Below, in pieces: positions 3-28,957 of a stretch of 29,736 nt of DNA. A program made the position numbers and the translations under genes. Within the stretch, counting starts at the first letter, position 1, and every line of letters begins with the position of its first letter. The notes beneath the pieces are model-generated. The model made no database searches. It worked only from the letters and a program-made list of their open reading frames with translations, and was not told the DNA's origin. The stretch comes from an uncultured Anaerolineales bacterium (GTDB lineage Bacteria > Chloroflexota > Anaerolineae > Epilineales > JAANWY01): the NCBI GenBank assembly GCA_964474265.1, contig CAYYSH010000002.1, forward strand, positions 1-29,736, in the 5' to 3' direction.

Positions 3-3000
3 CGCGATGCTTACCGCTCGACGTCCTCTCAGCCTGGCGAAGTGACGATGACCGAATCTGTTTTGCGCGCCGGCCACCCCCTGGTGGCCGAAGACGTGTT
101 CAACACACCCTACCTCAGCCCACATATTGCCGCCCAGTTCCCGGCTCGCTCGTTGCTTGGCCTGCCCCTCATCGCCGACGGCCAGAAGCTGGGTGCGGCC
201 CTCATTGCCTTCAACCAGCCTCATCAGTTCACACCGGACGAGATCGCCAGGGGAGAGCAGGCAGCCCGGCAGGTCGCTCTGGCTATCGCCAAAGCCCGTG
301 CGCTGGAGGCAGAACGCCGGCGCGCTGACGAACTGGACGCGCTGCGAGGCATCATCGCCGACATCCTGACAGAACACGAATTGCCGAAATTGCTTCGCAC
401 GCTCCTGGAGCGGGCTGTCGCGCTACTGAATGCGACCGGGGGCGACCTGGGGCTGTACGACGAGGAGGCCCAGGAATTAGTGATTATTGTGAGCCATAAC
501 ATGGGCAAAGACTACGCCGGCACGCGCATGGCGTTGGGTGAGGGCGCGATGGGACAGGTGATGCAGACCGGCAAACCCGTGCTCATCGACGACTACATCA
601 CGTGGGAGCATCGCTCGCCCCAATACGCCGACGGTCCCTGGCACGCCGTCATGGCTGCACCGCTCATATCCGGAGAGCGGCTGATCGGCGCTCTTGGCAT
701 TGTGGACTCTGACCCACAGCGGCGGTTCACCCCCGACGACCTGCACCTGCTGAGTCTCCTGGCCAACCAGGCAGCTATCGTGGTCGAGAAAGCCCGCCTG
801 CTCAAAGAGGCGCAGGTCCGGGCACGCCGGCAGGCAGCCCTGGTTCAACTCAGTGTGGATCTTGCGGCCACCCTTGATGAAGAGGAGATTTGCCATCGCG
901 TGGTGCAAAGGCTGCATGATACACTCGGCTATGCCTACCAGGGCATCTTTCTGGTGGACGAATCCACCGGCGACCGCGTGCTGTGTGCCGGCATTGGCTG
1001 GCCAGATGCTCCCGCCGACTGGCGCATTCCGCCCGGCCAGGGCGTGAGTGAGCGTGCCATCCTGGATGGCCAGCTCCACTACACGCCGGATGTGACGAAG
1101 GAGCCCAACTACGTTCCCGGCCTGAACAGCGGCGCAGAGGTGGACGTGCCAATCTATGCTAGTGGCAAGGTGGTAGGAGTCCTGGTTGTTGAGAGTCAGG
1201 AGCCCAACGCCTTCGGCCCGAATGACTTTGAACTCCTGGAGGCCGTGGCGAACCAGGCCGGCATTGCCATGAGCAACGCCCGGCTGCTGCAGGAATCGCA
1301 GCGCCGGGCCGAAGAAGCAGAGACGCTGCGTCGGGCCGGCGCTGTTGTCGCCGCCGCACTCGAGCAAGACGAGGCCATCCAGCGTATCCTGGAGCAACTC
1401 GAGCTGGTGGTACCGTACGACAGCGCTTCGGTGCAGTTGCTACGCGAGGGGTACGTGGAAATTGTTGGCGGGCGCGGCTGGGCGGATCCAGCGACCGTAG
1501 TCGGGCTGCGTTTTCCGGTGCCCGGGGACAACCCCAACACCGTGGTCATCCAGGAGCGCCGGCCCTACATCCTGAACGACGCGCCGGCTGCTCATGCCCC
1601 CTTCCGCGAAGACCCTCATAGCCACATTCGATCGTGGCTGGGCGTGCCGCTGATCGTGGGAGACCGGGTCATCGGCATGCTGACCGTGGACAGCAAGCAG
1701 CCAGGCCACTTTACACCCGATCACGCCCGGTTGGTCACGGCCTTCGCCAACCAGGTAGCCATCACGTTGGAGAACGCCCGGCTCTTTGCTGAGGTCGAGC
1801 AGCGAGTCATGGAGTTGTCCATCATGCTCGAAACAGCCAGGGTGGTCTCGTCCACACTCCACCTCGAAGAGGTGCTTCCCATCATTGCCCGGCAAATGGC
1901 GCAGGCCATCGGCGTCTCTGGCTGTACTCTCTCGCAGTGGGACCGAGAGGCTGACGCCGTGGTGACGTGGATCGAGTGGCGTAGAGACTGGGGTGAGTAT
2001 AGCAGCGAACCGGGCACTGCTTATTCCTTGAAAGAGTATCCGGCTACCCGGGCGGTCCTTGAGAAACGCCACCCCGTTGTCATCCGGGTTTCAGACCCGG
2101 AGGCCGATCCTGCGGAGGTTGCTCTGATGCGAGAACAGAACATTTTAACCCTACTTATGCTACCGCTTGCCATCGGTGACAGGGTCATCGGCCTGGTCGA
2201 ATTGGACGATGAGGTGAGGGAACGAGAATTTACAAGCGACCAAATCCGTCTATCCCAGGCACTTGCGGATCACGCGGCCATAGCCATTGAGAACGCTCGC
2301 CTGTTCGAGGCAGAACGCAAACATAGCCAGGAGCTTGAAGCGCTGCACGAGGCCAGCCTGCGCCTCACTTCGAAGTTAGAATTGCAATCCGTGCTGGAAG
2401 CTATCCTGGATTACGCACTGAGACTGGCAGCGGCCACTGATGCTCACATCTTCCTCTACGATGGTGAACGGCTTTCCTTCGGCGCTGCCCTGTGGGCGAA
2501 TGGGCAGGAAGAGTCACCGTACATTGAACCCCGGCCCGAGGGGCTGACTTACACCGTAGCTCGCACCGGGAAACGTATCGTGGTGGACAATGTCAACCGT
2601 CACCCCCTGTTCAAAGACTGGCCCTGGGGCGGTGCTATCGCCGGCCTGCCCCTGCGCATTGGTGGTCAGGTGTGTGGAGTGATGAATGTCGCTTTTGACA
2701 AACCGCACACTTTTGAGGAAGACGAACTGCGCGTGCTGGAGCTCCTGGCCGACCAGGCCGCCATTGCCATTCGCAATGCCCAGCTCCATGCCGAAGTTCA
2801 GGCGCTGGCTATCACCGATTCCCTCACCGGCTTCTACAACCGGCGTGGCCTGTTTGAGCTGGGCCGGCGTGAGGTCGAGCGCGCCCGGCGCTTTGGCCGG
2901 CCTCTTTCCGCCCTCATGCTGGATCTGGATCACTTCAAGCTTGTGAATGACACCTATGGCCATCACATCGGCGACCAGGTGCTGGCCGAGCTAGCCGCCT

Positions 3001-3320
3001 GTTGCCGGCAGGTTCTGCGCGACGTGGACCTGTTGGGGCGGTACGGCGGCGAGGAGTTCGTATTTCTCCTGCCCGAAACTGGCGTCGCCGCTGCTGAGCC
3101 GGTGGCCGAAAGACTGCGCCGGCATGTGGAGCGCTCACTCATGAACACAGATCGCGGCCCGATATCCATCACCATCAGCCTGGGGGTCGCTCAGTTAGAC
3201 GAGACCTGCCCTGACCTGGAGACCCTGCTCGAACATGCCGACCAGGCCCTGTACGTCGCCAAGCGATCAGGGCGGAACCAGGCCCGCGTCTGGCAGGCAA
3301 ATGACCAGGACGTCCCGTAA
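3..3320 (+). CDS. Multi-GAF diguanylate cyclase (at least 6 GAF + GGDEF), 5'-partial
   Basis: The frame is open from base 3 (RDAYRSTSSQPGEV...), so the track's GTG at 42 is internal. Six GAF-ending motifs (e.g. LANQAAIVVEKARL, FANQVAITLENARL, LADQAAIAIRNAQL). C-terminal DSLTGFYNRR, LDLDHFKLVNDTYGHHIGD, RDVD I-site (3018-3029), GGEEF A-site (3045-3059), ADQALYVAKRSGRN. Confidence 0.95.
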   Translation, partial: RDAYRSTSSQPGEVTMTESVLRAGHPLVAEDVFNTPYLSPHIAAQFPARSLLGLPLIADGQKLGAALIAFNQPHQFTPDEIARGEQAARQVALAIAKARALEAERRRADELDALRGIIADILTEHELPKLLRTLLERAVALLNATGGDLGLYDEEAQELVIIVSHNMGKDYAGTRMALGEGAMGQVMQTGKPVLIDDYITWEHRSPQYADGPWHAVMAAPLISGERLIGALGIVDSDPQRRFTPDDLHLLSLLANQAAIVVEKARLLKEAQVRARRQAALVQLSVDLAATLDEEEICHRVVQRLHDTLGYAYQGIFLVDESTGDRVLCAGIGWPDAPADWRIPPGQGVSERAILDGQLHYTPDVTKEPNYVPGLNSGAEVDVPIYASGKVVGVLVVESQEPNAFGPNDFELLEAVANQAGIAMSNARLLQESQRRAEEAETLRRAGAVVAAALEQDEAIQRILEQLELVVPYDSASVQLLREGYVEIVGGRGWADPATVVGLRFPVPGDNPNTVVIQERRPYILNDAPAAHAPFREDPHSHIRSWLGVPLIVGDRVIGMLTVDSKQPGHFTPDHARLVTAFANQVAITLENARLFAEVEQRVMELSIMLETARVVSSTLHLEEVLPIIARQMAQAIGVSGCTLSQWDREADAVVTWIEWRRDWGEYSSEPGTAYSLKEYPATRAVLEKRHPVVIRVSDPEADPAEVALMREQNILTLLMLPLAIGDRVIGLVELDDEVREREFTSDQIRLSQALADHAAIAIENARLFEAERKHSQELEALHEASLRLTSKLELQSVLEAILDYALRLAAATDAHIFLYDGERLSFGAALWANGQEESPYIEPRPEGLTYTVARTGKRIVVDNVNRHPLFKDWPWGGAIAGLPLRIGGQVCGVMNVAFDKPHTFEEDELRVLELLADQAAIAIRNAQLHAEVQALAITDSLTGFYNRRGLFELGRREVERARRFGRPLSALMLDLDHFKLVNDTYGHHIGDQVLAELAACCRQVLRDVDLLGRYGGEEFVFLLPETGVAAAEPVAERLRRHVERSLMNTDRGPISITISLGVAQLDETCPDLETLLEHADQALYVAKRSGRNQARVWQANDQDVP

Positions 3321-3342
3321 ACAGTTCGCCTATGAGGAGAAA

Positions 3343-4971
3343 ATGCAACCTGCAAACCACATGAAACTCGACCAATTGCTGGATTCGCGACAACTGGAAC
3401 AATTTCTGCACGCCCTCGTTGAGCTCGTACCAGTGACCCTGCACGTGGAGGGTTCAAACGGCAAGTTGCTGGCACAGGCGCGGCCAACAGGAGTGAGGAG
3501 CAACACTGCGTCCCCGCCTCTGGAGCACCTGCACAGGACAACCCGGGCAGAGGCACGTGTGCCTGTCGAAATCCACGGCGAGCGAATTGGACAGGTCGTC
3601 GCTGTCGCCGCCGATCCCGAACAGGGCATGGCTCCCCTGGTCGAGTCTGCGGCGCGGCTGGTGGCTCACATTGTGGCCGATCAGGCATACAAAGAGCACG
3701 AACTGAACAGCCTGTCAACCGAACTGCTGGATAAGTACGAAGAGATTACCTTGCTGTACGACCTCAGCCAGGCGTTGGGCTCCATCTTTGACATTTCTGC
3801 CCTGTGCAACATTGCGCTGGAGAAAGCCGCGCAGGCTGTGCCGGCTGCCAAGGGCTTCGTGATGCTCAAAGATAAGGACTCACAGAACCTCACCGTGGTG
3901 GCCGCTCGCGTGGACGGGCTGGTGGGGTGGAAAACGCCGGTTGGTGTGGGCATCAGCGGGCGCGTGGCCGAGTCCGGGAAGCCGATTCTATTGCTGGAGG
4001 GCGAACAGCTTCCCTCGCGCAAGCCGGAAGAGCAGGGGCCGCGCGATGCAGTGCTCTCGGTGCCGCTCGTGTTATCTGCTGCCGAGGATGAGGAAGTGCT
4101 GGGCGTGATCACGCTGGCCGGCAAGCCTCGTGGCGAGATGTTCACAGCCGGCGATGCAAAGCTGCTACGAACAATCGCCACGCAACTGGCTATCGCCATC
4201 CACAACAGCCGGCTGCTCCAGGCCCAGCGGGAAGCCGAGCGCGTGCGGCAAGAGATGGAAATTGCGGCCCGCATCCAGCGCAACCTGTTGCCCAATCGGC
4301 CACCGGACCTGCCAGGCATCGAGGTCGCTGGGCGGTGCCTCCCGGCGACCAACGTGGGGGGCGACTACTACGACTACCTGGTGGACCAGGAAGGCCGGCT
4401 AAACCTGATCATCGCCGACGTCTCCGGCCACAACATCGGCGCAGCCCTGATGATGGTCATGGCCCGCAGCATCCTGCGACGCGAGATCGGCGAGGGGAAA
4501 TCGCCGGCCAGCGTCCTGGCCCGCACCAACACCGCTCTGTTACACGATCTGACCAACGCCGAATTGTTCATCACCATGTTCTGCGCACGCTACGACCCCG
4601 CCACCCGTTGTCTGACCTTCGCCAACGGGGGGCACAATCCGCCGTTGCTGCGGCGCTCAAGCGATGCACAGATCGTGGAACTCGACGGAGATGGTATGAT
4701 CGTGGGCATTCTGGAAGATGTGTCGTTTCAAGAGCAAACTATCACGCTGGAGCCAGGCGACCTCCTGCTCCTGTACACCGACGGTATCGTCGAGGCACGC
4801 AACGCCGAGGGTGAGCAGTTCGGTGATGGCCGGCTGCGAAAACTTCTGATCGATGGCGGTGCATTGCCTCCCGACATGCTGGCGGACCGAATTCACGCGG
4901 CTGTTCGTGAGCACAGTCGAGACAGCGCCCAGCAAGACGATGTTACGCTGCTGATTCTGAAAGTCGAGTGA
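3343..4971 (+). CDS. GAF-containing PP2C/SpoIIE (RsbU-like) serine phosphatase, 542 aa
   Basis: GAGGAG SD at 3334-3339 precedes ATG 3343 (the track start at 3235 overlaps the previous gene). PP2C motifs VGGDYYD, IADVSGH, LLYTDGIVEA and QQDDVTL are all intact. A GAF domain and coiled coil lie upstream. Confidence 0.93.
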   Translation: MQPANHMKLDQLLDSRQLEQFLHALVELVPVTLHVEGSNGKLLAQARPTGVRSNTASPPLEHLHRTTRAEARVPVEIHGERIGQVVAVAADPEQGMAPLVESAARLVAHIVADQAYKEHELNSLSTELLDKYEEITLLYDLSQALGSIFDISALCNIALEKAAQAVPAAKGFVMLKDKDSQNLTVVAARVDGLVGWKTPVGVGISGRVAESGKPILLLEGEQLPSRKPEEQGPRDAVLSVPLVLSAAEDEEVLGVITLAGKPRGEMFTAGDAKLLRTIATQLAIAIHNSRLLQAQREAERVRQEMEIAARIQRNLLPNRPPDLPGIEVAGRCLPATNVGGDYYDYLVDQEGRLNLIIADVSGHNIGAALMMVMARSILRREIGEGKSPASVLARTNTALLHDLTNAELFITMFCARYDPATRCLTFANGGHNPPLLRRSSDAQIVELDGDGMIVGILEDVSFQEQTITLEPGDLLLLYTDGIVEARNAEGEQFGDGRLRKLLIDGGALPPDMLADRIHAAVREHSRDSAQQDDVTLLILKVE

Positions 4972-5007
4972 CGGTGATCAGGGAGCAGTGACTTGGGAGG
5001 AATGACG

Positions 5008-5364
5008 ATGGAGAATACGATTCTGGTGGTAGATGATTCACCATTTATGGTGCGCACGCTGAGCTTCATTCTGGAGAAGGCCGGCTATACTGTCGCCACC
5101 GCCGGCAGCGGGACAGAGGCCCTGGCCCAGGCCCGGGCTACACAGCCCCGGCTGATCCTTCTGGATTCGGTGATGCCGGGCATGGATGGCCGCCAGGTGC
5201 TGGAGTCGATCCGGCAAGACCCCTCGCTCCAGAAAGCGCGAGTGGTGATGGTGAGCGGCTCGGACGCCGATGACCTGCCGGAGGCAGACGGCTTCGTCGC
5301 CAAACCGTTCACGCCGGACAAAGTGCTTGAGACAGTCGCCCGCCTGATCGAGGCGGGGAGTTAG
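5008..5364 (+). CDS. Single-domain response regulator (REC), 118 aa
   Basis: ILVVDD acidic pocket, LILLDSVMPGMDG phospho-Asp, VVMVS, FVAKPF. GGAGG SD at 4996-5000 favours ATG 5008. Confidence 0.92.
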   Translation: MENTILVVDDSPFMVRTLSFILEKAGYTVATAGSGTEALAQARATQPRLILLDSVMPGMDGRQVLESIRQDPSLQKARVVMVSGSDADDLPEADGFVAKPFTPDKVLETVARLIEAGS

Positions 5365-5380
5365 CAACTGGAGGCCGGCC

Positions 5381-6484
5381 ATGACCCCCAAACATGTGGA
5401 CTCAGTGAAGCAACAACTGGCGCTGATCAGCACCGTCAGCCGGCAGATTACCTCTATCCTGGATCGCGATGACCTGCTGGATGTTGTGGTCGCGTCGATT
5501 CACGAGATGCTCGGCTACGATGTGGTCCACCTGTTCTTGCTTGACGCCGCCAGCGGGGACCTGGTGTTTCAGGCCGGAACAGCGCCGGCAGGGCCGGCGC
5601 TGAAGGCACAGGCGTTCCGCATTGCCGGGGATCGGCAAAGCATCATCGCCTGGGTGGCCCGTCACGGCGAGCCCTTGCTGGTCAACGACGTCAGCCAGGA
5701 ACCCCGCTATCTGGCCCACGAGTTGCTGCCGGACACCCGCTCCGAGCTGGCGCTGCCGCTCAAAATGGGTGGCCGCGTGCTCGGGGTGCTGGATGTGCAG
5801 AGTGATCAGGTCAACGCGTTCACTGACGACGACCGGTTTGTGCTCGCTACCCTCGCGGATCAGGTGGCCGTTGCTGTGGAGAACGCGCATCTCTTCGACT
5901 CGCTGCGGGAGAAAGAACGTCAACTGGCTTATCAGATCGAGCGGGCCAACGATGCTATCTTCAACATTGATCTGGCCGGCTGTTTTACCTCATTCAACAA
6001 CGCTGCTGAGGAAATCTCGGGCTATCGCCGGCAGGAGGTGTTAGGCCGGCCCTTCACCGATCTGCTGTGTCCCGAGTACCACGCCGAGATGCTGCGCCGG
6101 CTGCGCGACGGCGTGGAGCAACATCCGGGCCAGACGTACGAGGTGGCGTTCTTCCACAAACTGGGCCACCGCGTGCCCATTGAGATCAGCATCACGGCAC
6201 TGCGACGGGATGGCCGGCCAGCCGGCGCCCTGGTCATCGCCCGCGACATCCGGCAGCGCAAACGCCTGGAGCGAGAGATCCTGGACTTCATCTCACAGAT
6301 TTCCCACGACCTGCGCACGCCGCTGGCAACTATCCTCTCCTCCTCTGAGATTTTGCTGAGTTATGACGAGGAGCCCGAAACTCGACGCGAGTTTCTGGAG
6401 ATGATCCACCACGAAGCGCGGCGGCTGGCAGAGATGATCGACGAGATCGTGGACCTGCGCAGCAAGATGGATACAGGAGGTTAG
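5381..6484 (+). CDS. GAF-PAS-HisKA(DHp) protein lacking the HATPase_c domain
   Basis: GAF (...LADQVAVAVENAHLF), PAS (NDAIFNIDLAGCFTSFNNAAEEISGY...ARDI), H-box ISHDLRTPL (His codon 6305-6307). The stop follows directly after the second DHp helix. GGAGG SD at 5370-5374. Confidence 0.88.
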   Translation: MTPKHVDSVKQQLALISTVSRQITSILDRDDLLDVVVASIHEMLGYDVVHLFLLDAASGDLVFQAGTAPAGPALKAQAFRIAGDRQSIIAWVARHGEPLLVNDVSQEPRYLAHELLPDTRSELALPLKMGGRVLGVLDVQSDQVNAFTDDDRFVLATLADQVAVAVENAHLFDSLREKERQLAYQIERANDAIFNIDLAGCFTSFNNAAEEISGYRRQEVLGRPFTDLLCPEYHAEMLRRLRDGVEQHPGQTYEVAFFHKLGHRVPIEISITALRRDGRPAGALVIARDIRQRKRLEREILDFISQISHDLRTPLATILSSSEILLSYDEEPETRREFLEMIHHEARRLAEMIDEIVDLRSKMDTGG

Positions 6485-6560
6485 AGAGGGCCGCTAGACT
6501 GAAGGCCGAGGGATGGTCAGCTATCGTGGAAATAGCTGCAGTACTGGTGAGGAGAAATAC

Positions 6561-6938
6561 ATGTCCAACAGCAAGATTTTAGTCGTTGATGACGAACCAT
6601 TCATCCTGCGCACGCTGACTTTCGTGTTGAAAAAGGAGGGTTATGACATCGCTACGGCTGTGAACGGGGAGGAAGCCCTGGCCCAGATTCGAGCGTCGGA
6701 GCCATCTCTGGTTTTCGTGGATGCCATGATGCCCAAGAAAGACGGCTACCAGGTTGCACAAGAGGTGCGCGACGACCCGACTCTCAAGCGGCAGCCGTAC
6801 ATCATCATGCTGACAGCCCGGGGCCAGGAGTCCGACCGCGAGAAGGCCGAGAGAGTGGGTATCAATGAGTTCATGACCAAACCCTTCAGCCCATCAAAGG
6901 TGGCAGCACGGGTTCGAGAGATTCTGGAACGTACATAA
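6561..6938 (+). CDS. Single-domain response regulator (REC), 125 aa
   Basis: ILVVDDE, LVFVDAMMPKKDG, IIMLTA, FMTKPF. GAGGAG SD upstream of ATG 6561 (the track start at 6513 is probably too early). Confidence 0.93.
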   Translation: MSNSKILVVDDEPFILRTLTFVLKKEGYDIATAVNGEEALAQIRASEPSLVFVDAMMPKKDGYQVAQEVRDDPTLKRQPYIIMLTARGQESDREKAERVGINEFMTKPFSPSKVAARVREILERT

Positions 6939-6952
6939 AAGGAGGTTTTTCC

Positions 6953-7288
6953 ATGGAGATTCAGGTCGAACGAAACGGAACGGTGGCTGTAGTGGCTGTC
7001 GCCGGCCAGGTAGAGGCAGCAACAGCCCCCCAGCTCAGAGAACAGTTCGATGGCCTGCTCGGTGATGGCGAGCAAAATTTCGTCATCGACCTGTCGGGGG
7101 TGACGTTTATGGACAGTTCCGGCCTGGCCACGTTGGTCCAGCTCTTCAAACGCGTTCGCATTGGCCATGGCGACGTCCGGTTATGCGGCCTGCAACCCGA
7201 AGTGCAACGCATTTTCGAACTGACGCGGCTCGACCGCGTGTTCGATCTCTTCCCGGACCGCGTCGAAGCTGTGGCCAGCTTCCACTGA
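6953..7288 (+). CDS. STAS anti-sigma-factor antagonist (RsbV/SpoIIAA family) #1
   Basis: 111 aa with IDLSGVTFMDSSGL phosphorylation-loop motif. AGGAGG SD. Confidence 0.93.
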   Translation: MEIQVERNGTVAVVAVAGQVEAATAPQLREQFDGLLGDGEQNFVIDLSGVTFMDSSGLATLVQLFKRVRIGHGDVRLCGLQPEVQRIFELTRLDRVFDLFPDRVEAVASFH

Positions 7289-7295
7289 TGCAGCC

Positions 7296-7724
7296 ATGGC
7301 CGAAACGACTCACGAAACTTTAGTTATTCACAGCCGGCTGGCTGCAGTCGCCGAGGCGCGCCGCTGGGCATCTGACCACGTTCGTGCAGCCGGGTTCGAC
7401 AACGACGTAGTTTTCGCCGTGGAACTTGCCCTCAGCGAGGCGCTCACCAACGTCATCGAGCATGCCTATGCCGGAGATGAAACGCAAGAGATCCGCCTGT
7501 CCCTGGCTATCGACGATGAGAAACTACGTCTGACGATCCGGGACTTCGGTCGGAAGTTCGACCTGTCGAGCTACCAGTCACCGAACCTGGATGTGCCAGC
7601 GGAGGGAGGTTATGGCGTGTACCTGATCCACCAACTGATGGATGAGGTTAACTACGACACGTCGCCGGCGCAAGGGACACGGCTCAGCCTGGTTAAGTAT
7701 CGAGTAGGAGGAACTCATGCATGA
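7296..7724 (+). CDS. RsbW/SpoIIAB-type anti-sigma serine kinase (HATPase_c_2)
   Basis: N-box ELALSEALTNVIEHAY, G1 IRDFG, G2 EGGYGVYLIHQLMDEV. Adjacent to a STAS gene. Confidence 0.92.
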   Translation: MAETTHETLVIHSRLAAVAEARRWASDHVRAAGFDNDVVFAVELALSEALTNVIEHAYAGDETQEIRLSLAIDDEKLRLTIRDFGRKFDLSSYQSPNLDVPAEGGYGVYLIHQLMDEVNYDTSPAQGTRLSLVKYRVGGTHA

Positions 7725-9018
7725 CGTCTGCCTGATTCTGGAAGGCACCTATCCATATATCACCGGTGGCGTGTCAGCCTGGGTGCAGGCTCTGCTCGCC
7801 GGCCTGCCCGACCTGGATTTCGCCCTCGTTCATCTGAGCGCTGGTAATGGCCGGAAGCCTCCAAGCCGGTATGCACCGCCGGCCAACCTGACCGAGTTCA
7901 TCGAGTGGCCTCTGGACGTTGGGGAGGTCAGGGTGCGGAGAAGCCAGCAGTTGGTGGGAAGAAGGTGGGATCCTCACCTCACTCCCGCCTCGCTGCCCAA
8001 AGCACGAGTGTACCACGCTCTGTCCACTGGGTTCGCCGGCCTGCTGGGCTGTCAGGTGAAACTGGCCACAGGTCGCCCCCTCATCCTGACGGAGCACGGC
8101 ATCTACTGGCGTGAAGTGCAGGCCGGTGCCGGCGAACTGGAGTGTGGCTTCCGGGTCGTGCCAGATGGGAACGATTGCATCAGCCTGCATGTGGTGCGAA
8201 ATCACTGGACGGTGGCTCTCCAGGAGGCGGCACGCCAGGCCTACGCTCAGGCGGACGTCATCACCACCGTGTGTCGGGCCAATGCCCGACTGCAATTCGC
8301 TCTTGGCGCACCCCCTTCGCGGTGCCAGGTCATCCACAACGGCGTGGATTGGCCGGCACTGGCGCCCAACGGCGCTCGCTCGCCGGCCACCGACGGCATC
8401 TACCGCATCGGCTTCGTCGGTCGAGTCGTGTCAATCAAAGACGTTGCCACATTCCTCAAGGCATGCCAGTTGGTGGCCGGCGAGCTGCCCACCGCCCACT
8501 TCTACGTCATCGGGCCACTGGATCACGATCCGCCCTACGCGGCCTATTGCCAGAGCCTGGCCGCCGGGCTGGGCCTGGAAGACCGCGTGACCTTCACGGG
8601 CGAAACCGATCCTGTGCCCTGGTACCGCCGGCTGGATGTTGTCGCGTTGACGAGTGTCAGCGAAGGACAGCCGCTGGCCCTGTTGGAGGCGATGGCTGCC
8701 GGCGTGCCGGTCGTCGCCACGGCCGTAGGCGGGTGCCCGGAGCTGATCCTGGGAGCCACGCCGCAGGACCGAGACCTGGGGCCGGCCGGGCTCCTGACGC
8801 CGGTCCGTGATCCCCAGGCCACGGCCCATGCCATTTTGGCGCTATGCCATGATGTGGACCGGTGGCGCCGGGCATCGTGGGCCGGCCAGCATCGGGTGCG
8901 CCAGTTCTACTCGATCGAGCATCTATGTCAGGCCTATCGAGCTCTGTACCTTGGCATGCTCGGACGGACCAATGTCGAACCTGCGTACGCGCAAAGTGTT
9001 AACGGGAGAGTGCTATGA
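7717..9018 (+). CDS. pelF: PelF-like GT4 glycosyltransferase (DUF3492-type N-terminus) #1
   Basis: DVCLILEGTYPYITGGVSAW, LILTEHGIYWRE, VIHNGVD, FVGRVVSIKD and the E-x7-E motif SEGQPLALLE are all PelF hallmarks. Confidence 0.85.
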   Translation: MHDVCLILEGTYPYITGGVSAWVQALLAGLPDLDFALVHLSAGNGRKPPSRYAPPANLTEFIEWPLDVGEVRVRRSQQLVGRRWDPHLTPASLPKARVYHALSTGFAGLLGCQVKLATGRPLILTEHGIYWREVQAGAGELECGFRVVPDGNDCISLHVVRNHWTVALQEAARQAYAQADVITTVCRANARLQFALGAPPSRCQVIHNGVDWPALAPNGARSPATDGIYRIGFVGRVVSIKDVATFLKACQLVAGELPTAHFYVIGPLDHDPPYAAYCQSLAAGLGLEDRVTFTGETDPVPWYRRLDVVALTSVSEGQPLALLEAMAAGVPVVATAVGGCPELILGATPQDRDLGPAGLLTPVRDPQATAHAILALCHDVDRWRRASWAGQHRVRQFYSIEHLCQAYRALYLGMLGRTNVEPAYAQSVNGRVL

Positions 9019-9728
9019 GGATTGGAATACTTCACCAATACAGCCTGCTTAGCTCCGGTAGCGGGGTGTACACAGTGCACGTGACTCAGCGATTGCTGCG
9101 GCGCGGCCACCAGGTATGCCTTGTGTGCCGGGATTTCGAGTTGGATCGCCATATCTTTATCGACGAAGCCTTCATCCACGAAGGGCAGCACACGCAACGG
9201 GTGTTTCGGCGTCGTCGCGAGCCGGCGTGCAGTGCTCACGCGCTACACAGCAAGGTTATGCCTGTGGCCTATCCGCGTGCGGAGACGCCCAATGGCCGGC
9301 TGTTCACGGACCTGACCGACGAGGAGATTCGCGAGTACGTGGCGTATCACGTGGATCGGGTCGCCTACATTGCCCGCCGGCACCGCCTGCAGGTACTCCA
9401 CGCCAACCACGTCGTGCTCATGCCTTACATCGCACTGCAGGTGAAGCGCCAGTTGGGCCTGCCCTACGTGGTAACTGTCCATGGCAGCACGATTGAGTTC
9501 GTGGTGAACCAGGATGAGCGTTATCGGCAGCACGCTGTGGCCGGCCTGCGCGGCGCAGATCGAGTGATTGCGCTAAACCCGGAAGTGCGGGACCGTGTCC
9601 TCCAGATCTGTCCCGACCTTGGAGGCCGGCTGACCAGCATTTCGGTCGGCGTGGACACAAGAGTGTTTCGACCGGTGTACGTGAGACCGCTGGAGGTCAC
9701 CAGCCATGTCGTATCAGCATACGGGTAG
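9015..9728 (+). CDS. GT4 glycosyltransferase, N-terminal Rossmann half
   Basis: SGSGVYTVHVTQRLLRRGHQV, LHANH, PYVVTVHGS, ADRVIA, VGVDTRVFRP, then a stop. ATGA overlap with the pelF stop. Confidence 0.85.
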   Translation: MRIGILHQYSLLSSGSGVYTVHVTQRLLRRGHQVCLVCRDFELDRHIFIDEAFIHEGQHTQRVFRRRREPACSAHALHSKVMPVAYPRAETPNGRLFTDLTDEEIREYVAYHVDRVAYIARRHRLQVLHANHVVLMPYIALQVKRQLGLPYVVTVHGSTIEFVVNQDERYRQHAVAGLRGADRVIALNPEVRDRVLQICPDLGGRLTSISVGVDTRVFRPVYVRPLEVTSHVVSAYG

Positions 9729-11525: not shown

Positions 11526-11570
11526 AGGCCAGCCCAGCAGGTCTCAAGAAACGCAGATGGAGGCGACGTG

Positions 11571-13865: not shown

Positions 13866-15863
13866 ATGAAGTATCACACCCAGGCGCTGATAGCTATCTC
13901 GAAGCTTGTGGGCTGGTTCGTGGTGCTGTTCGTCTGGCTCCCGCGTTGGCTTTTCCCACGCCCGGCAGTACCCGGGAGCGGCGCGCGGTTTTTCGCCAAC
14001 CTGGCCCGCATGGTTCTGGCAACAGCAATCATCATACAGGGGCTGGTACTGTTGCACCTGTTCGACTTCTTCTCCCTGGTGGCCAGCTACCTGGTGCTGG
14101 GAGCCGGGATTGCCAGCCTGCGTCGGGGCCGGCTGCCCATCGCCGAGCTGGATCAGGCCGTCACGCAGTTGGAGGCAACGATCATCGACATGCTGGAGGG
14201 GAACTTCCCTTACCACACGTGGCTCAACCGGGCGGGGCAGCGGTTTCAACGCTGGGTTCTTACCTGGCAGCCAGACAGAGACACCATTGCCTGGGGGATG
14301 GTGTTGGGCATGGTGTTGCTTATCAGCGCCGGCCTCCGGCTGGCTGGTGTGCCGACCAGGGCTGCGCCCGGCGACCCGGGCACCTACCTGCACATGGCCT
14401 GGACCCGCTTACTGGCCAGCAACACCATCTGGCCCAACGGTGCCTATCCGTTGGGTGCCCACAGTTGGATCCAGACCATCGCACAGTTCGCCCGGGTGGA
14501 CGAAGCGCTGCTCGTTCGAACGGCAGGGGGGCTGGTGGGGCTCCTGCTGACGCTAGCGGTCTACGTATCCGTTCGCTGGGCCGGCGCCGGACAGGGAGCG
14601 GCGGTGGTGGCGACAGCCACGTATGGCATGTTCATTTTCGCGGGTGTGCTGCCCGCCGGCGCATCTCGCCAACAAGAGTTGCATCCGTTCGAATTCGGGC
14701 TCGTGTTCTTGCTACCATCGTTGATGTTCATCTCCGAATCCCTGGACTCCTTTCAATGGCCACTCTTCCTGCTGGCCGGCGAATGCCTGGCGGCCGCCTC
14801 TGTCCTGCACCCGGTGGCCGGCCTGTTCGGGCTGCTCGGATTGGTGGCGGTGTTGGCAGTTCAAGCAGTGAGCGGGCGCAGAGCGTTCCGCTGGATCGGG
14901 TGGGCTGTGGCTGCCGGCGGCCTCGCCACCTTACTCGGCAATTTGTTCTTGCTGGTGGCACGTCTGATGGGCCGGCCCCGCCACCAGGGCGTGCTGGACA
15001 TCGTCGTCACCTTCTTTGCGCCCGGGCGGCCGGACCCGGCGTGGCAATCGCTGGTGTGGGGGTTGGCAGCACTGGGAGCTGGTCTGCTGTTGTCGCCACC
15101 CCATCACCGGGCGCTGTTTCGACGGAGTACCGGGCTCTTCCTGGGATTGCTGGTGGCCCTCTTCATGGGGTATCCGGCCCTTCTGGCTCCCGACAAGGTG
15201 GGAATTCCGCTGTCTCTGGTGGCCGCCGTGGGGCTGGGGGTGGAGTTGGACATTGTGCTGACGGCGCTTCGGCAGCTCATTGGCCGGCTGGGAATGCCGC
15301 GCCTGCACCCGTCTATCGGATTGACGGCCGGCCTGGTCGCCCTCGCCATTGCCGGCGTGACCGTGATATCACCGCCGCTGCAGGCGGACCCTGGTCCGCC
15401 CCAGGAGCCGGAGTCCCTGGCGCGGGCTCTCTACCAGATCAAAACCGATCATCTGGCCTATACCTGGACTGTGGTTGGATACCCGGAGGCATTGCCACAG
15501 GTGCTGGGGCGCGGCTATTTCCTGTCGTGGAAGGATTTCCTGGCGAAGTACGATCCGGTCGCGTATCGTTTCGATCCGCGAGATCCGGATCTGGCGATCC
15601 CAACTCGCTACGTGTTTATCATGGTTGAAAAGCAGGTGTTCGTCGGTCCCAACGATCTGGCCGCAGATACATTGGAAAGAGCCAAACTACAGGTGGCTCT
15701 CCAGGACTGGGTCGCGCGCTATCAACAGTACCACGACGATATGAGCATTTACTACGAGGATAGTTCAGTTGCTGTCTACCAGATTTATCGGTCGCCGGAG
15801 ATTGAGCGACAGATCATTGAAGAATACGAGGCGGAACAGTTCCAGCGGAGGAAACAGCGATGA
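13866..15863 (+). CDS. Multi-pass integral membrane protein (possibly GT-C/PMT-like), function unknown
   Basis: 665 aa with many hydrophobic segments, an early loop GDPGTYLH...YPLGAH and a soluble C-terminal domain. Lies between the deacetylase and the HD protein. Confidence 0.8.
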   Translation: MKYHTQALIAISKLVGWFVVLFVWLPRWLFPRPAVPGSGARFFANLARMVLATAIIIQGLVLLHLFDFFSLVASYLVLGAGIASLRRGRLPIAELDQAVTQLEATIIDMLEGNFPYHTWLNRAGQRFQRWVLTWQPDRDTIAWGMVLGMVLLISAGLRLAGVPTRAAPGDPGTYLHMAWTRLLASNTIWPNGAYPLGAHSWIQTIAQFARVDEALLVRTAGGLVGLLLTLAVYVSVRWAGAGQGAAVVATATYGMFIFAGVLPAGASRQQELHPFEFGLVFLLPSLMFISESLDSFQWPLFLLAGECLAAASVLHPVAGLFGLLGLVAVLAVQAVSGRRAFRWIGWAVAAGGLATLLGNLFLLVARLMGRPRHQGVLDIVVTFFAPGRPDPAWQSLVWGLAALGAGLLLSPPHHRALFRRSTGLFLGLLVALFMGYPALLAPDKVGIPLSLVAAVGLGVELDIVLTALRQLIGRLGMPRLHPSIGLTAGLVALAIAGVTVISPPLQADPGPPQEPESLARALYQIKTDHLAYTWTVVGYPEALPQVLGRGYFLSWKDFLAKYDPVAYRFDPRDPDLAIPTRYVFIMVEKQVFVGPNDLAADTLERAKLQVALQDWVARYQQYHDDMSIYYEDSSVAVYQIYRSPEIERQIIEEYEAEQFQRRKQR

Positions 15864-17731
15864 CAATGTCCAACGAGGCTCGACCGGGCTTTGCCTTCGG
15901 ACGACCGCCGGCCCCCGACTGGTCTGACTTCTTCGGGGCATTGGCAGAACACACCGACTACCAGGCACGGCTGGATGCGCTGCTGGAACTGACGGCCAGG
16001 GCCACCAAGCTGCCTGTGGTTGCCCTCTACCTGGCGGACAGCCCCGAAAGCCGGCCCCACCTGGTGCGCCTCCGCTTCCCCAAGCCGGCGCGAGCCACCT
16101 CGGCCGGTGCTGAAACGGGCTCCCGCGTCCCATTCCTGGGCGGTTCTCTGGGTCGCTGGAGACGTGAGACGTTGGACGCCGAGACTTTCGATGTGGACGA
16201 AGCCTTTTACTCCGACAGCGTCGTGTCCGTCAGCTCAGGAGTGCCCCTTGATTTGCCACGTGACGAGAGGTATACGACTTCATCCATTGTTGCGACCCCT
16301 GTCGGCGCGCTCTATTCTGTGCCGCTACACCGCCGGGGAGAGCAAATCGGGGTTGTGCAGGTCGGGCCTGTGTCTGAGCAGCCCGGCCGCCGGCTACGCA
16401 AGGCAATGGAGTCGATCGCTAGCCCGCTGGCCCACGCTGTTGCTCTGGCCCGTGAGCAGAGCCGGCTACAGGAGCAACTCGCGGAGTATGAGACCCGCGC
16501 CGATGTCAGCCGACAGATGCTGCGCTCCGCCTTCGAGCTGGACGAGTTTCTGCATCTGCTGCTCGAACTGGCGGTGAAGGCGAGCGGAACCCAGGCCGGC
16601 TTCATCGCGCTCGCCGACACTTCCGGGGCGATCCGGCTGCACACGGCTGTGGACCTGCCCGACGGACTGCTCGATGGCGTGGATCTCACCCCCGGTGCCG
16701 GCTTTCTGGAGTGGCTGGACGAGGCAGAGCGGGCCCTCTACGTCGCCGACTTTGCACGGGCAGCCGAACTCGGGATTCAGGTGATTCTGGCCGTTCCCCT
16801 GGCAGATGAAGAGCGCGTGCTGGGCGTGTTGGGTTTGATGAATCTGGAGGGAGGCCGGCCACCGGCTGAGCACAGCCTGAACCTGCTGGCCATCTTTGCC
16901 GAGCAGATTCAGTTGGTGTTGGGCAACGTGCGGCTGTTTGAGGCTTTTAACCGGCAGTTTGTGGACACCATTCACGCCCTGGCTCGGGCGCTGGATGCCC
17001 GCTACCCCTACAGCGAGGGCCACCACCGACGCGTCACCGACTGGGCCATGACCATCGGTCACGAGTTGGGGTTGAGTGAGGGCCAGTTGGAGGCTCTGTG
17101 GGTGGCCGGCATGGGACACGACGTGGGCATGTGCGGGATCGTGGAGGTCGAACACGGCTTCCAGGCCGACTTCCATCACCCTACCATCGGCGCTTCCATG
17201 TTCGACGTGCTCCCCAATGGCCAGGCCGCCAGCGAAATCGTGGCCACACATCATGAGTGGTTCGACGGCTGGGGCTTCCCGGCCGGCCTGAAAGGGGAGG
17301 AGATCCCAGTCGGCGGTCGAATCCTGGCGCTGGCAGAGTACATCGTAGAGAGCACGACGGCCGACTCCATCCAGACGGCCATGCCACCGTCGAAACTTTT
17401 CGAGGAGATCGAGATCCGGCGGGGCCGGCAGTTCGATCCAGCAGTGGTAGATGCCTGGCGTGCGGCCTTCGAGCGACAGCGCCGGGCGTCAGCGTTGGGC
17501 ACTCCATTTCGCCCCTGCCACACGTTCAAGGGTGAGCCCGAAGCCGCCTGTACCACCTGTCCGGCTCGCACGGTGGCCGCACCCTGCTGGACAATCCCGG
17601 ACGTGCGCTGCATTTACCACGGAGACCCAGATTGCAGGGGGTGTTTTGTCTATCTGGAAGCAGTTGAGCGAGCGACAGATGCGGGCACAGACGTGCCGGC
17701 GCCAGCCCCGCGGGGCGTAGAAGAGGTCTAG
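15860..17731 (+). CDS. GAF-GAF-HD-GYP-like (degenerate) protein with Cys-rich C-terminal motif
   Basis: Two GAF-like regions. EGHHRRV, GHDVG, HHPTIG, HHEWFDGWGFPAGLKGEEIP, QFDPAVV. ATGA overlap with the upstream stop. Confidence 0.85.
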   Translation: MTMSNEARPGFAFGRPPAPDWSDFFGALAEHTDYQARLDALLELTARATKLPVVALYLADSPESRPHLVRLRFPKPARATSAGAETGSRVPFLGGSLGRWRRETLDAETFDVDEAFYSDSVVSVSSGVPLDLPRDERYTTSSIVATPVGALYSVPLHRRGEQIGVVQVGPVSEQPGRRLRKAMESIASPLAHAVALAREQSRLQEQLAEYETRADVSRQMLRSAFELDEFLHLLLELAVKASGTQAGFIALADTSGAIRLHTAVDLPDGLLDGVDLTPGAGFLEWLDEAERALYVADFARAAELGIQVILAVPLADEERVLGVLGLMNLEGGRPPAEHSLNLLAIFAEQIQLVLGNVRLFEAFNRQFVDTIHALARALDARYPYSEGHHRRVTDWAMTIGHELGLSEGQLEALWVAGMGHDVGMCGIVEVEHGFQADFHHPTIGASMFDVLPNGQAASEIVATHHEWFDGWGFPAGLKGEEIPVGGRILALAEYIVESTTADSIQTAMPPSKLFEEIEIRRGRQFDPAVVDAWRAAFERQRRASALGTPFRPCHTFKGEPEAACTTCPARTVAAPCWTIPDVRCIYHGDPDCRGCFVYLEAVERATDAGTDVPAPAPRGVEEV

Positions 17732-23476: not shown

Positions 23477-23543
23477 TGCGTGGTCAGGTGCTAAGCGCGA
23501 GCATGTAAGGAACGGCACCTGACTGGCGTGGAGGAGAGAAACT

Positions 23544-25598: not shown

Positions 25599-25672
25599 AG
25601 GGGGCGGAGTCCGAGGCCTGACACATGGCAACCTGGCGGACTGCGCCTGTAGCATTGGGAATGAGGGAGGCT

Positions 25673-26261: not shown

Positions 26262-27320
26262 ATGCCCGTTAAGCTGCAGGTGCTGGTAGTAGATGACTCG
26301 GCCTTGATGCGGAAGCTCATCTCAAACCTGCTGACATCGGATCCCGGGATCGAGGTCGTGGATACGGCACAGGATGGCCTGGAAGCTGTCCAGAAAGTGG
26401 CCGATCTTCGCCCAGACGTGGTGACGCTGGACGTGGAGATGCCACGACTCAGTGGGCTGGAGGCCCTCAGCCAGATCATGCAGCACAACCCAACCCCGGT
26501 AGTGATGCTGACCGGCCTCGATAACCCGGACATTGCTCTGGAAGCGCTACAGCGAGGGGCTGTAGACTTCGTCCTCAAGCCATCAGGAACGATCTCCGTC
26601 GATCTGTACAAGATACGCGAGGAATTGATCCACAAAGTCAGACTGGCCCGCCTGGTGAATCTGCGGAAGTTGACCGACCTCCCGGAGTCACACGCTTCTG
26701 CGCTCTCTTCGGTGTCCCCACGCCATGGGAGAAGGCCCGGCCGCCGCATCGTGGTCATCGGCGCGTCAACAGGCGGGCCACGGGCGGTAGAATATGTCCT
26801 GGCCGGCCTGCCTGGCGACCTGCCGATTTCGGTGTTGGTGGTGCAGCACATGCCGGCGGGCTTCACTCGCTCCTTCGCCCAGCGACTGAACAGGCAAAGC
26901 GCTCTGCACGTGGAAGAGGCTGAGGACGACCGCCGGCTGTCTCCGGGCCGTGTTTTTGTCGCCGCCGGCGGCTACCACATGCGTATCCACCCCGGCGGTG
27001 TCATTCGGCTGGACCAGTCCCCCCCGGTCAATGGTCTCCGGCCGGCTGCTGATCTGACGATGATTGACGTGGCCAGAGTATACGGCCCGCGCAGCATCGG
27101 AGTCGTGCTCACCGGGATGGGCTCCGACGGCGCCCAGGGCGCTCAGGCCATAAAGGCTGCCGGCGGCCTCGTCGTTGCCCAGGATCAGGCGACCAGCGTT
27201 GTGTATGGCATGCCCCGTGCTGCGGCCAGAGCCGGCGCTGTGGACCGAATCTTGCCGCTCACCGATATCCCCGCTGCCATCGTGGAGGCAGTAGCCGGGG
27301 AACCGGAACACCAACCATGA
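26262..27320 (+). CDS. cheB: Chemotaxis response regulator protein-glutamate methylesterase CheB
   Basis: N-terminal REC (VVDDS, TLDVEMP, VLKP). Esterase Ser-His-Asp triad in GASTGGP, QHMP, LTGMGSDG. Confidence 0.96.
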   Translation: MPVKLQVLVVDDSALMRKLISNLLTSDPGIEVVDTAQDGLEAVQKVADLRPDVVTLDVEMPRLSGLEALSQIMQHNPTPVVMLTGLDNPDIALEALQRGAVDFVLKPSGTISVDLYKIREELIHKVRLARLVNLRKLTDLPESHASALSSVSPRHGRRPGRRIVVIGASTGGPRAVEYVLAGLPGDLPISVLVVQHMPAGFTRSFAQRLNRQSALHVEEAEDDRRLSPGRVFVAAGGYHMRIHPGGVIRLDQSPPVNGLRPAADLTMIDVARVYGPRSIGVVLTGMGSDGAQGAQAIKAAGGLVVAQDQATSVVYGMPRAAARAGAVDRILPLTDIPAAIVEAVAGEPEHQP

Positions 27321-28957
27321 TCGATCTTACAGAGTACAAGGACCTGTTTGCCAGTGAGGCCCAGGAACACCTGGAGACCATGAACAGCGGGTTGCTCATC
27401 CTGGAACGGAATCCGGAGGACACCCTGACCCTGGAAGCCATCTTTCGAGCAGCCCACTCGCTCAAAGGCATGGCCGCCACCATGGGCTACCAGGACATGG
27501 CCCACGTCGCCCACGCCCTGGAGGATTTGCTGGACGAACTGCGAAGGGGCAATCAGCGACTCACGCCGGCCCTGGCAGATGTGGTGCTTTCCGGCGTCGA
27601 TGCGCTCACAACCCTTCTGGCAGACGCCCTGGCGGGCAGGCCGGCCAGCCTGGACATTGGAACTCTTACCGACAACCTTAAAACCGGAGCAGTCACCGCC
27701 GCTGAAAACAGACATCCACCTGCCGATGTGCCCTCTCGCGACATCACAGCCGTGGTCGAGCCAGATAGGCCCGTGCAATCCACCATTGCGCTCCAGACAC
27801 CGGAACTTCCCCAGACGATCCGCGTCAAAGCCCAAACCCTGGATTCGCTGCTCAACCTGGTGGCGGAACTGGTGATCAGCCGTAGCCGGCTGTGGCGCAT
27901 CCAGCGCAGGCACAACCTGCCGGACCTGGAGGAAGCCCTGGAGGAACACGACCGCTTGCTGACCGACCTGCGAAATGCTGTGCTCCAGGCCCGCATGGTG
28001 CCGGTGGCCCAGGTCTTCAACCGCTTTCCCCGCATGGTTCGCGACCTGTTGAAGGAGCGGGGGAAAGAGGCCGATTTTCGGATCGAGGGGAGCGACATCG
28101 AGTTAGATCGCACGGTCCTGGAACGGGTGACCGACCCACTCATGCACCTGCTACGCAACGCAGTGGATCACGGCATCGAACCGCCAGAGGAACGCCGGCG
28201 AAATGGCAAGGAGCCGCGCGGGACCATCCAGCTCATTGCCCGGCGTGAGCGTGAATCCGCTGTTCTGGAGGTGACCGACGATGGCGCCGGCCTGAACCGG
28301 GAGCAGATCGTGGAAACGGCCATCCGGCGTGGGCTGATCAGCCGCTCCGAGGCCGAAGAACTGCCATACCAGCAAGCACTCATGCTCATTTGTCACCCTG
28401 GCTTCTCTACGGCTGAACGGGTCACTGAGATTTCAGGACGTGGCGTCGGCATGGACGTGGTCCGACGACAGGTAGAGTTGCTCCAGGGGAGCCTTCACAT
28501 CGAGACCCGGCCTGGAGCGGGCACCACCTTCCGCCTGCGTCTCCCACTGACACTGGCTATCACTCAGGCTTTGCTGGTGGGGGTGGGAGGCGAGACCTAT
28601 GCCATCCCCCTGAGCCAGGTCGAGCGCACGCTGGAGATCGAGCCCGGACAGGTGAGGCGGGTTCAACGGCGGCAGGTGCTCGCCCGCGGGAATTTGCACG
28701 CTCTACCACTGGTTGACCTGCGAGAGGTGCTTGGTGTACCTGGCGACGCTCCGGGGCGCGCCGGCCCCGGCTATGCCGTAGTCGTAGGTGAGAACCGCGA
28801 CCGGATCGGGTTGGTGGCCGACAATCTTCTGTATCAGGAAGAGATCGTCATTCGCCCGCTGCCGCAAGCCATTGGAAGTATCCCCGGCCTGGCTGGCGCT
28901 ACCATCCTCGGTGAGGGCCAGGTGGTTCTCGTTCTGGACGCCCCGAATTTGGTGTAA
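27317..28957 (+). CDS. cheA: Chemotaxis histidine kinase CheA (Hpt, dimerisation, HATPase, CheW-like; no obvious P2 domain)
   Basis: FRAAHSLKGMA, IRVKAQTLDSLLNLVAELVI, HLLRNAVDHGIE, DDGAGL, GRGVGMDVV, LPLTLAI, GATILGEGQVVLVLD. ATGA overlap with the cheB stop. Confidence 0.96.
   Translation: MIDLTEYKDLFASEAQEHLETMNSGLLILERNPEDTLTLEAIFRAAHSLKGMAATMGYQDMAHVAHALEDLLDELRRGNQRLTPALADVVLSGVDALTTLLADALAGRPASLDIGTLTDNLKTGAVTAAENRHPPADVPSRDITAVVEPDRPVQSTIALQTPELPQTIRVKAQTLDSLLNLVAELVISRSRLWRIQRRHNLPDLEEALEEHDRLLTDLRNAVLQARMVPVAQVFNRFPRMVRDLLKERGKEADFRIEGSDIELDRTVLERVTDPLMHLLRNAVDHGIEPPEERRRNGKEPRGTIQLIARRERESAVLEVTDDGAGLNREQIVETAIRRGLISRSEAEELPYQQALMLICHPGFSTAERVTEISGRGVGMDVVRRQVELLQGSLHIETRPGAGTTFRLRLPLTLAITQALLVGVGGETYAIPLSQVERTLEIEPGQVRRVQRRQVLARGNLHALPLVDLREVLGVPGDAPGRAGPGYAVVVGENRDRIGLVADNLLYQEEIVIRPLPQAIGSIPGLAGATILGEGQVVLVLDAPNLV

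Follow-up and report, generated by a model that had tools for sequence, protein, structure and literature searches.

The window, a stretch of 29,736 nucleotides, is a whole contig (CAYYSH010000002.1) of the metagenome-assembled genome GCA_964474265.1 from an uncultured Anaerolineales bacterium (2.57 Mb, 75% complete). Between two genes for stand-alone receivers, REC1 (5008..5364) and REC2 (6561..6938), lies a gene for a 367-residue protein (5381..6484) that comprises a GAF domain, a PAS domain, and the DHp hairpin of a histidine kinase, and that ends without a catalytic ATPase (CA) domain. The same architecture is conserved in a family of 29 sequence clusters, which form one clade. As judged from its sequence, the GAF-PAS-DHp protein cannot make phosphoryl groups and can only receive, pass on, or hydrolyze those borne by receivers. 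The reading that we favor, which we place somewhat under even probability, is that it may serve as a PhyT-like, sensor-gated histidine step between the two receivers, with an additional phosphatase activity on REC2.

Architecture of the GAF-PAS-DHp Protein

Pfam places the GAF domain at residues 28–167 (E 2e-21; window 5462–5881), the PAS domain at residues 185–291 (E 1e-14; 5933–6253), and a HisKA domain (PF00512) at residues 302–359 (54.6 bits against a gathering cut-off of 26.9); the DHp hairpin as a whole spans 6251–6472. The Pfam scan of the protein returned no match to HATPase_c or to the Spo0B and ChpT families. In the AlphaFold2 model, calculated with the family alignment as input (pLDDT 82.9), the GAF domain is followed by a long connecting helix, the PAS domain, and then the two DHp helices, residues 291–327 and 332–364. 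The C terminus at residue 367 is three residues past helix 2, and 58 residues follow the phospho-acceptor His, compared with a median of 224 in 35 ordinary HisKA matches. The protein is thus not a classical sensor histidine kinase, in which HisKA is paired with HATPase_c.

The TAG stop codon is at 6482–6484, and read-through would meet a TGA five codons on. The start codon of REC2, an ATG at 6561, is preceded by a GAGGAG ribosome-binding site, which leaves a spacer of 76 nt, far below the size of a CA domain (∼110–150 residues), so that none fits. A CA domain concealed by a frameshift or by read-through is excluded by this spacer and the second stop. The original prediction, made from the DNA letters alone, had described a protein that keeps its H-box and ends right after the DHp, 76 nt from the next gene and with no CA domain in another frame; Pfam, the AlphaFold2 model, and inspection of the stop codon and ribosome-binding site all agree with that description.

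Sequence matches of the DHp in the PDB are the DHp domains of WalK, HK853, and VicK, with that of RetS also among them, and Foldseek searches against the PDB returned generic GAF, PAS, and kinase matches only. The best partial NCBIfam matches are PnpS, PhoR, and WalK, none at the family cut-off.

The PAS domain contains the motif LLCPEYH (window 6068–6082, residues 230–234), in which all 16 of the aligned members share Cys230, Glu232, Tyr233, and His234. This motif presumably marks the beginning of the helix that carries the heme ligand in PAS domains of the FixL/DosP type. With only weak matches to DosP/EcDOS (E 2e-5 to 8e-4), heme binding was considered and is not claimed. The Cys230/His234 region may possibly be a cofactor or redox site.

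A Conserved Family without a CA Domain

A search with the whole protein returned ∼25 clusters at 45–79% identity, with an identical Pfam set, no HATPase_c, and a common end point of the alignment. A search with the PAS-DHp portion only returned 28 clusters at 57–100% identity, all without a CA domain, and the next matches were only 33% identical. The family defined in this way comprises 29 clusters (clustered at 90% identity), drawn from NCBI, ENA, JGI, and Logan assemblies, each of which ends 58–69 residues after the His. Members from other assemblies carry the label Anaerolineae, and “PAS domain S-box protein” was the sole database name returned for six clusters that were looked up.

The closest relatives that bear a CA domain are multi-GAF-PAS-HisKA-HATPase_c kinases of two other genomes of the class Anaerolineae, G071 and G019, which are 51–53% identical in PAS-DHp and are found in contexts unrelated to that of the window gene. 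A class-level genome search gave four matches beyond the window's own genome; G071 and G019 were two of these, and they were used as outgroups rather than as family members. In a maximum-likelihood tree of PAS-DHp, the proteins without a CA domain group together in one clade (support 100/98), within which two subclades are well supported, and G071 and G019 branch just outside. P0274, with a branch length of 3.07 in a first tree, P0275, P0051, and the fragment P0272 were left out. Given the monophyly of the family and the position of full-length kinases just outside it, the tree indicates that the CA domain was lost once, long ago, before the family diversified.

These results bear on whether the short protein could stem from a recently truncated gene, from a pseudogene, or from an assembly artifact. 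One copy, in genome G004, is indeed broken by frameshifts. All 29 clusters, from four sources of assemblies, nevertheless share the same end point, helix 2 is conserved even as overall identity falls to 45%, and the family is monophyletic, which together make this explanation scarcely credible. The original prediction had turned on whether homologues end at the same point or are full-length kinases; all of them stop at the same place, and the close homologues are not full-length kinases. On this sequence evidence, the gene encodes a real, conserved signaling protein of uncultured Anaerolineae.

The family is rare, being present in three of 301 sampled genomes of the class, with the G004 copy being the frameshifted one of the three. 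At that locus (L099:9088–10228), a REC-GAF-PAS-DHp gene with deletions and an internal TAA is spread over at least four frames, and the PP2C gene upstream and the REC2 gene downstream are intact; it is either a decaying gene or a set of assembly errors. A profile search of a library of 1.84 billion representatives was swamped by giant multi-GAF proteins with summed GAF scores, so that only P0011 of the family surfaced and no usable census was obtained. A scan of genome contigs with a generic H-box peptide gave no family members among the matches listed, which were ordinary kinases with at most 48% identity over short segments and at most 26% over the full length.

Conservation of the H-Box

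The H-box reads ISHDLRTPL, with its core, H309-D-L-R-T313, at 6305..6319. His309 occupies the phospho-acceptor position, Asp310 the kinase-specific position (H+1), and Thr313 the phosphatase-specific position (H+4). In HisKA kinases, the acidic residue at H+1 is needed for kinase activity only, and Thr or Asn at H+4 is needed for phosphatase activity only (PMC3510030). In the family alignment, the His and the Thr at H+4 are each conserved in 29 of 29 clusters, and the Pro after the Thr and most of helix 1 are invariant. The residue at H+1 varies: Asp in 13 clusters, Asn in 14, and Glu in two, compared with 33 Glu, two Asp, and no Asn in the 35 ordinary HisKA matches of the same search. The window protein has Asp at this position, and Asn arises in three separate lineages on the tree. 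Because H+1 varies while the His, the Thr at H+4, and helix 1 do not, the alignment indicates that selection for autokinase activity is relaxed, whereas selection on the His, the phosphatase residue, and the receiver-docking face remains.

This conservation also bears on a possible non-catalytic role, either as a RetS-like, dominant-negative heterodimer partner of a full-length GAF-PAS kinase or as a scaffold that sequesters receivers. The DHp is a dimerization module, RetS is represented among its sequence matches, and PhyT, a histidine kinase-like protein of Sphingomonas melonis, also sequesters its receiver protein PhyR (PMC5898713). A full-length paralogue is not a conserved part of the surrounding gene cassette, however, and the closest kinase in the window's own genome is only 35% identical in PAS-DHp. 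Moreover, strict conservation of the His, Thr, and Pro and of the docking face of the first DHp helix points to catalysis on a receiver, and we consider a purely modulatory protein improbable.

The Two Receivers

REC1 (Pfam Response_reg, E 1e-22) and REC2 (E 9e-28) both retain the DD pair, the phospho-acceptor Asp, the Ser/Thr, and the Lys; the earlier observation that both flanking receivers keep their Asp and Lys is therefore upheld by Pfam and by alignment. REC2 is always the next gene after the DHp gene and is highly conserved across orthologues. The two genes overlap by 8–26 nt in four of six related lineages (L001, L003-006, L100, and L104) and are separated by 61 nt in L102, compared with 76 nt in the window. 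The best NCBIfam matches of REC2 are the receiver domains of RpaB, PhoB, and YycF, none at the family cut-off, and its active site is PhoB-like, with Met at D+2 and Arg at T+2. REC2 is the probable cognate partner of the DHp protein. The PhoR-like matches of the DHp and the PhoB-like matches of REC2 fit a former cognate pair: the two look like a PhoR/PhoB- or WalK/WalR-type system that has been shortened on both sides, by loss of the ATPase domain from the kinase and of the DNA-binding domain from the regulator.

REC1 is more variable in placement. In the window, L102, L100, and L104, where REC1 lies directly upstream of the DHp gene, its α1 helix is nearly identical to that of REC2. In L003 and L006, the first receiver precedes the PP2C gene and has a different α1, and in P0008 and P0010, a receiver is fused to the N terminus of the DHp protein. 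Relative to REC2 and other receivers, the α4 region of REC1 is six residues shorter in the window and in L102 (window 5248–5290, after Ser83). A degenerate or shortened α4 region has been reported as a trait of intermediary receivers (PMC9981736). The deletion recalls the degenerate α4 of CckA-Rec and Sma0114.

Gene Neighborhood, Phosphodonor, and Output

Seven lineages with long contigs, including that of the window, share a cassette composed of an Hpt-bearing kinase, a GAF-PP2C phosphatase, a first receiver, the GAF-PAS-DHp protein, and REC2, often followed by a GAF-HD-GYP protein and then by a STAS protein, an RsbW-like kinase, a PelF-like glycosyltransferase, and further polysaccharide genes. 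All related loci have the PP2C gene upstream of that for the DHp protein; it is adjacent in three lineages, and REC1 lies between the two in the window and in the other three. In the window, the relevant genes, which extend over 42–29734, are tightly packed and on the + strand throughout. The PP2C phosphatase is of the SpoIIE/RsbU type (3343..4971; Pfam SpoIIE, E 5e-58, and GAF). The STAS protein is of the anti-sigma-antagonist type, with an FMDSSGL motif (6953..7288; Pfam, E 2e-25; NCBIfam ant_ant_sig, 91.5 bits, above the cut-off). The RsbW/SpoIIAB-like serine kinase (7296..7724; Pfam HATPase_c_2, E 5e-32) has RsbW and SpoIIAB as its best NCBIfam matches, under the equivalog cut-offs.

A receiver-less CheA is encoded directly upstream of the cassette in five lineages (L001, L003, L006, L100, and L104), with cheW and cheB upstream. 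In L102 (P0004, 75% identity), the lineage nearest to the window among those with long contigs, CheA is replaced by a hybrid kinase of 1178 residues with the architecture CHASE-PAS-HisKA-HATPase-REC-Hpt (L102:4419–7955), the gene for which stops 5 nt short of that for the PP2C. The kinase that serves as donor can thus be exchanged and yet always bears an Hpt domain, which makes this domain the likely phosphodonor. In the window, the candidate donor is a CheA with Hpt, dimerization, HATPase_c, and CheW domains and no receiver (27317..28957; Pfam). The original prediction had proposed that this CheY-less CheA might feed the protein, an idea that finds strong support in synteny.

In L001 and L104, a gene with H-NOX-like (HNOB) and V4R domains lies between cheB and cheA (L001:3341–3874 and L104:5585–6118); the che block of the window has none. 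Its presence suggests a gas (NO/O2) input to CheA in those two lineages.

On the output side, the window co-encodes an RsbU/RsbV/RsbW-type partner-switching module: the PP2C, a STAS protein with a phosphorylatable Ser, and the HATPase_c_2 kinase. No sigma-70-family domain was found among the scanned open reading frames (ORFs) of the window, which include all of those that flank the module. The PelF-like gene (DUF3492 and GT1 by Pfam), which opens a polysaccharide block in the window at 7717..9018, follows the RsbW-like gene in L001, L003, L006, L102, and L104. With the exception of L100, the module of which is without an RsbW-like gene, the window and the related loci have glycosyltransferases after the module. 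The GAF-HD-GYP gene directly follows REC2 in most related loci and is at 15860..17731 in the window (Pfam HD_5 and GAF). From this arrangement, the PP2C/STAS/RsbW switch and the exopolysaccharide genes, to which the original prediction had made no reference, are the likely output of the DHp/receiver circuit; REC2 probably acts on the PP2C, the RsbW-like kinase, or the HD-GYP protein, and the cassette as a whole probably links a chemotaxis-type kinase to exopolysaccharide control. In L100, the STAS gene is followed directly by a glycosyltransferase gene, with no RsbW-like gene between them (L100:11486–13258).

The RsbW-like protein is the sole stand-alone GHKL ATPase of the cassette, and it raises the question of whether the GAF-PAS-DHp protein could be one half of a split histidine kinase, with His309 phosphorylated in trans by a separate ATPase. 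The candidate gene is only 0.8 kb downstream and is present in six of the seven lineages, and HK1/HK2-TcrA of Mycobacterium tuberculosis is listed as a three-protein two-component system (PMC9321153). The ATPase, however, is a canonical serine kinase of the RsbW type, the gene for which abuts or overlaps that of the STAS protein, the DSSG-containing expected substrate, and it is absent from L100. The acid at H+1 that autophosphorylation calls for is Asn in about half of the clusters. The window's own genome, at its 75% completeness, contains no intact orphan gene for a CA domain only, and two short HATPase_c frames end at contig ends. A split kinase is accordingly an improbable arrangement.

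Proposed Mechanism

The present evidence establishes the domain architecture, the absence of a CA domain throughout the family, the residue pattern, and the synteny; in the following model, each phosphotransfer step, its direction, and the output are proposed. The DHp would form a dimeric module that is functional but does not autophosphorylate from ATP, and the GAF and PAS domains would set the state of its hairpin. Phosphoryl groups would enter from an Hpt domain, that of CheA (P1) in the window and most relatives or that of the hybrid kinase in one lineage. They would reach REC1, move reversibly to His309, and then pass to the cognate, PhoB-like REC2. A phosphatase activity dependent on Thr313 would drain phosphorylated REC2, with the GAF and PAS domains setting the balance between transfer and drainage. 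REC2 would in turn bias the PP2C/STAS/RsbW partner switch, and possibly the HD-GYP protein, and the switch would control the PelF-like polysaccharide machinery. A relay is suggested by the invariant His309, the docking helix that the second receiver has in common with REC2, the short α4 of REC1, the natural fusion of a receiver to the DHp protein, and the precedent of PhyT.

The main alternative takes the protein out of the transfer chain. An Hpt domain, such as P1 of CheA, would phosphorylate REC2, and perhaps REC1, directly, and the DHp would only speed dephosphorylation, providing a reset and a second input through GAF and PAS. Such a pure sensor-gated phosphatase is a real possibility, although on balance we think it less than probable. 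The donor is of the Hpt type in every locus, and Hpt donors have no DHp phosphatase activity. The PhoB-like active site of REC2 is also consistent with it, as Met at D+2 and Arg at T+2 predict, from the literature on autodephosphorylation, a long-lived phospho-Asp that needs a phosphatase. In addition, the type and position of REC1 are not conserved, and the invariant Thr and relaxed H+1 are as expected for a phosphatase.

Several points weigh directly against a relay. An Hpt donor can phosphorylate receivers itself, which leaves a second histidine step unneeded. The REC1 equivalents of L003, L006, and P0008 have a different α1 and may not dock on the DHp. The CheA gene of the window is 20 kb downstream of the DHp gene rather than adjacent to it, and the contig begins a short way upstream of the cassette. 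In HisKA proteins, the Thr at H+4 is needed for phosphatase activity and for nothing else (PMC3510030), so that this activity alone could explain its conservation. Finally, the isolated DHp of HK853, a construct without the CA domain, has phosphatase activity according to PMC7005713, which cites PMC5727384.

A pure phosphatase nevertheless leaves unexplained the adjoining or fused second receiver with the same docking helix and the degenerate α4 in one subclade. Nor does it readily account for an invariant His309, as some HisKA kinases, such as EnvZ, can do without the His in their phosphatase activity. Of the relay, phosphatase, and dominant-negative roles that the original prediction had set side by side, which sequence cannot separate, the first two both fit the invariant Thr and relaxed H+1, a pattern that argues against an autokinase, and the dominant-negative role is now the weakest.

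Other Features of the Window

Upstream of the cassette, a multi-GAF diguanylate cyclase with six GAF stretches and GGDEF (42..3320; Pfam) is truncated by the start of the contig. No convincing promoter or terminator was found to interrupt 3000–9200. After 9018, the polysaccharide block continues with more glycosyltransferases, nucleotidyl transferases, and a DUF2194 protein (11568–13850), with weak ThuA-like and DUF2334 matches, that is conserved in the polysaccharide block of related loci (L104:16037–18169). A GT4 glycosyltransferase is split in the window into two overlapping ORFs, Glyco_transf_4 at 9015–9728 and Glycos_transf_1 at 9706–10599, and its equivalent in related loci is one product of 530–555 residues; L102 may have a similar split, with a 237-residue product that matches Glyco_transf_4 only. 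A second STAS gene (17830–18171), a second PelF-like gene (18955–20832), and the cheR-MCP-cheW-cheB-cheA block (22652–28957) follow.

Comparison with Known Systems

Similar to the proposal for the GAF-PAS-DHp protein, Spo0B of Bacillus and ChpT of Caulobacter present a His-bearing helical hairpin dimer between two receivers in a His-Asp-His-Asp relay. Neither is known to have sensor domains or a canonical HisKA H-box. Both keep a C-terminal α/β pseudo-ATPase domain (ChpT: PMC3433190), whereas the window protein ends at helix 2; the original prediction was thus mistaken in citing the two as DHp-only proteins, given the degenerate ATPase-fold domain at the C terminus of ChpT. HK853, domain A of EnvZ, and CrdS share the domain and the H-box pattern H-[DE]-x-x-T, and their DHp alone can dephosphorylate the cognate receiver, with Thr or Asn at H+4 essential (PMC3510030, PMC7005713). 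These constructs are laboratory truncations of bifunctional kinases, whereas the truncation of the window family is natural, ancient, and under selection. HK1/HK2-TcrA of M. tuberculosis likewise includes a His-bearing DHp protein without an ATPase domain of its own. Its mechanism is split, with the ATP-binding half encoded by the adjacent gene. In the window, in contrast, the nearby ATPase is a serine kinase of the RsbW type that is paired with a STAS protein and is absent from L100.

Sigma-less partner switches for polysaccharide or biofilm control are known in SypE-SypA of Vibrio fischeri, HptB-HsbR-HsbA of Pseudomonas aeruginosa, and HmpUVW. In systems of the SypE, HsbR, and HenR types, a switch made up of a PP2C, an RsbW-like kinase, and a STAS protein is controlled through two-component phosphorylation of a receiver. 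This receiver forms one protein with either the PP2C or the kinase, and to our knowledge, none of these systems contains a DHp protein without a CA domain. In HenR-All4160 of Anabaena, two-component phosphorylation drives a sigma-less PP2C/RsbW-like/STAS switch that acts on polysaccharide (bioRxiv 10.64898/2026.04.08.717354).

The GAF-PAS-DHp protein and the PhyT/PhyK proteins are, as proposed or known, respectively, histidine kinase-like steps between receivers that end in a partner switch. PhyT is a membrane-bound protein of the HisKA_2/HWE type in which a degenerate CA domain is retained. Members of the present family are either soluble or anchored at the N terminus, with a canonical HisKA, no CA domain, and GAF and PAS sensors. 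The partner switch also differs, being of the RsbU/V/W type here and PhyR-NepR-EcfG in the PhyT pathway; the window protein has neither a HisKA_2 domain nor a CA remnant, and no gene for PhyR, NepR, or EcfG is present among the scanned ORFs of the window. With its sensors, its HisKA-type domain, and its lack of a pseudo-CA domain, the protein falls outside the Spo0B/ChpT and PhyT families, and the resemblance is functional only. PhyT (PhyP) of S. melonis and PhyK of Caulobacter, acting with SdrG/MrrA, are nevertheless the closest precedents for the step that we favor (PMC5898713, PMC5964349). PhyT does not autophosphorylate; the phosphate passes from a single-domain receiver onto its conserved His and then to a second receiver, of which it had earlier been assumed to be the phosphatase (PMC5898713, PMC5964349). 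The Pak-SdrG-PhyT-PhyR pathway is a relay through a kinase-dead, histidine kinase-like protein into a partner switch (PMC5898713).

No description of a natural, sensor-bearing HisKA protein of this kind without a CA domain was found in the literature searched. The studied kinase-dead proteins that resemble histidine kinases (Spo0B, ChpT, and PhyT) all keep a pseudo-ATPase domain and have no sensors, as far as we know. We put forward, as a tentative proposal that falls short of probable, that a natural DHp-only protein with GAF and PAS domains may add a second, independent signal gate to a chemosensory pathway. It would do so either by forming a new class of phosphatase for CheY-type receivers or by supplying the histidine step in a longer relay (His-Asp-His-Asp when fed by CheA, six steps when fed by the hybrid kinase), and it would couple kinases of the Che or Hpt type to a sigma-less partner switch with direct control over the synthesis of Pel-like polysaccharide in Anaerolineae. 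If GAF and PAS do gate transfer or phosphatase activity, the family would provide a compact second input for chemosensory and Hpt pathways, as well as a natural test case for sensor control of DHp conformation without a CA domain. Anaerolineae are abundant in sediments and bioreactor sludge, and the cassette outlines for them a complete and testable system of exopolysaccharide regulation. Spo0B, ChpT, and PhyT established that a DHp fold can take on a new role in phosphotransfer; the present family would extend this principle, in that a PhoR/WalK-like kinase appears to have been reduced to sensors and a DHp, and its regulator to a bare receiver, with both kept over the long term in a larger circuit.

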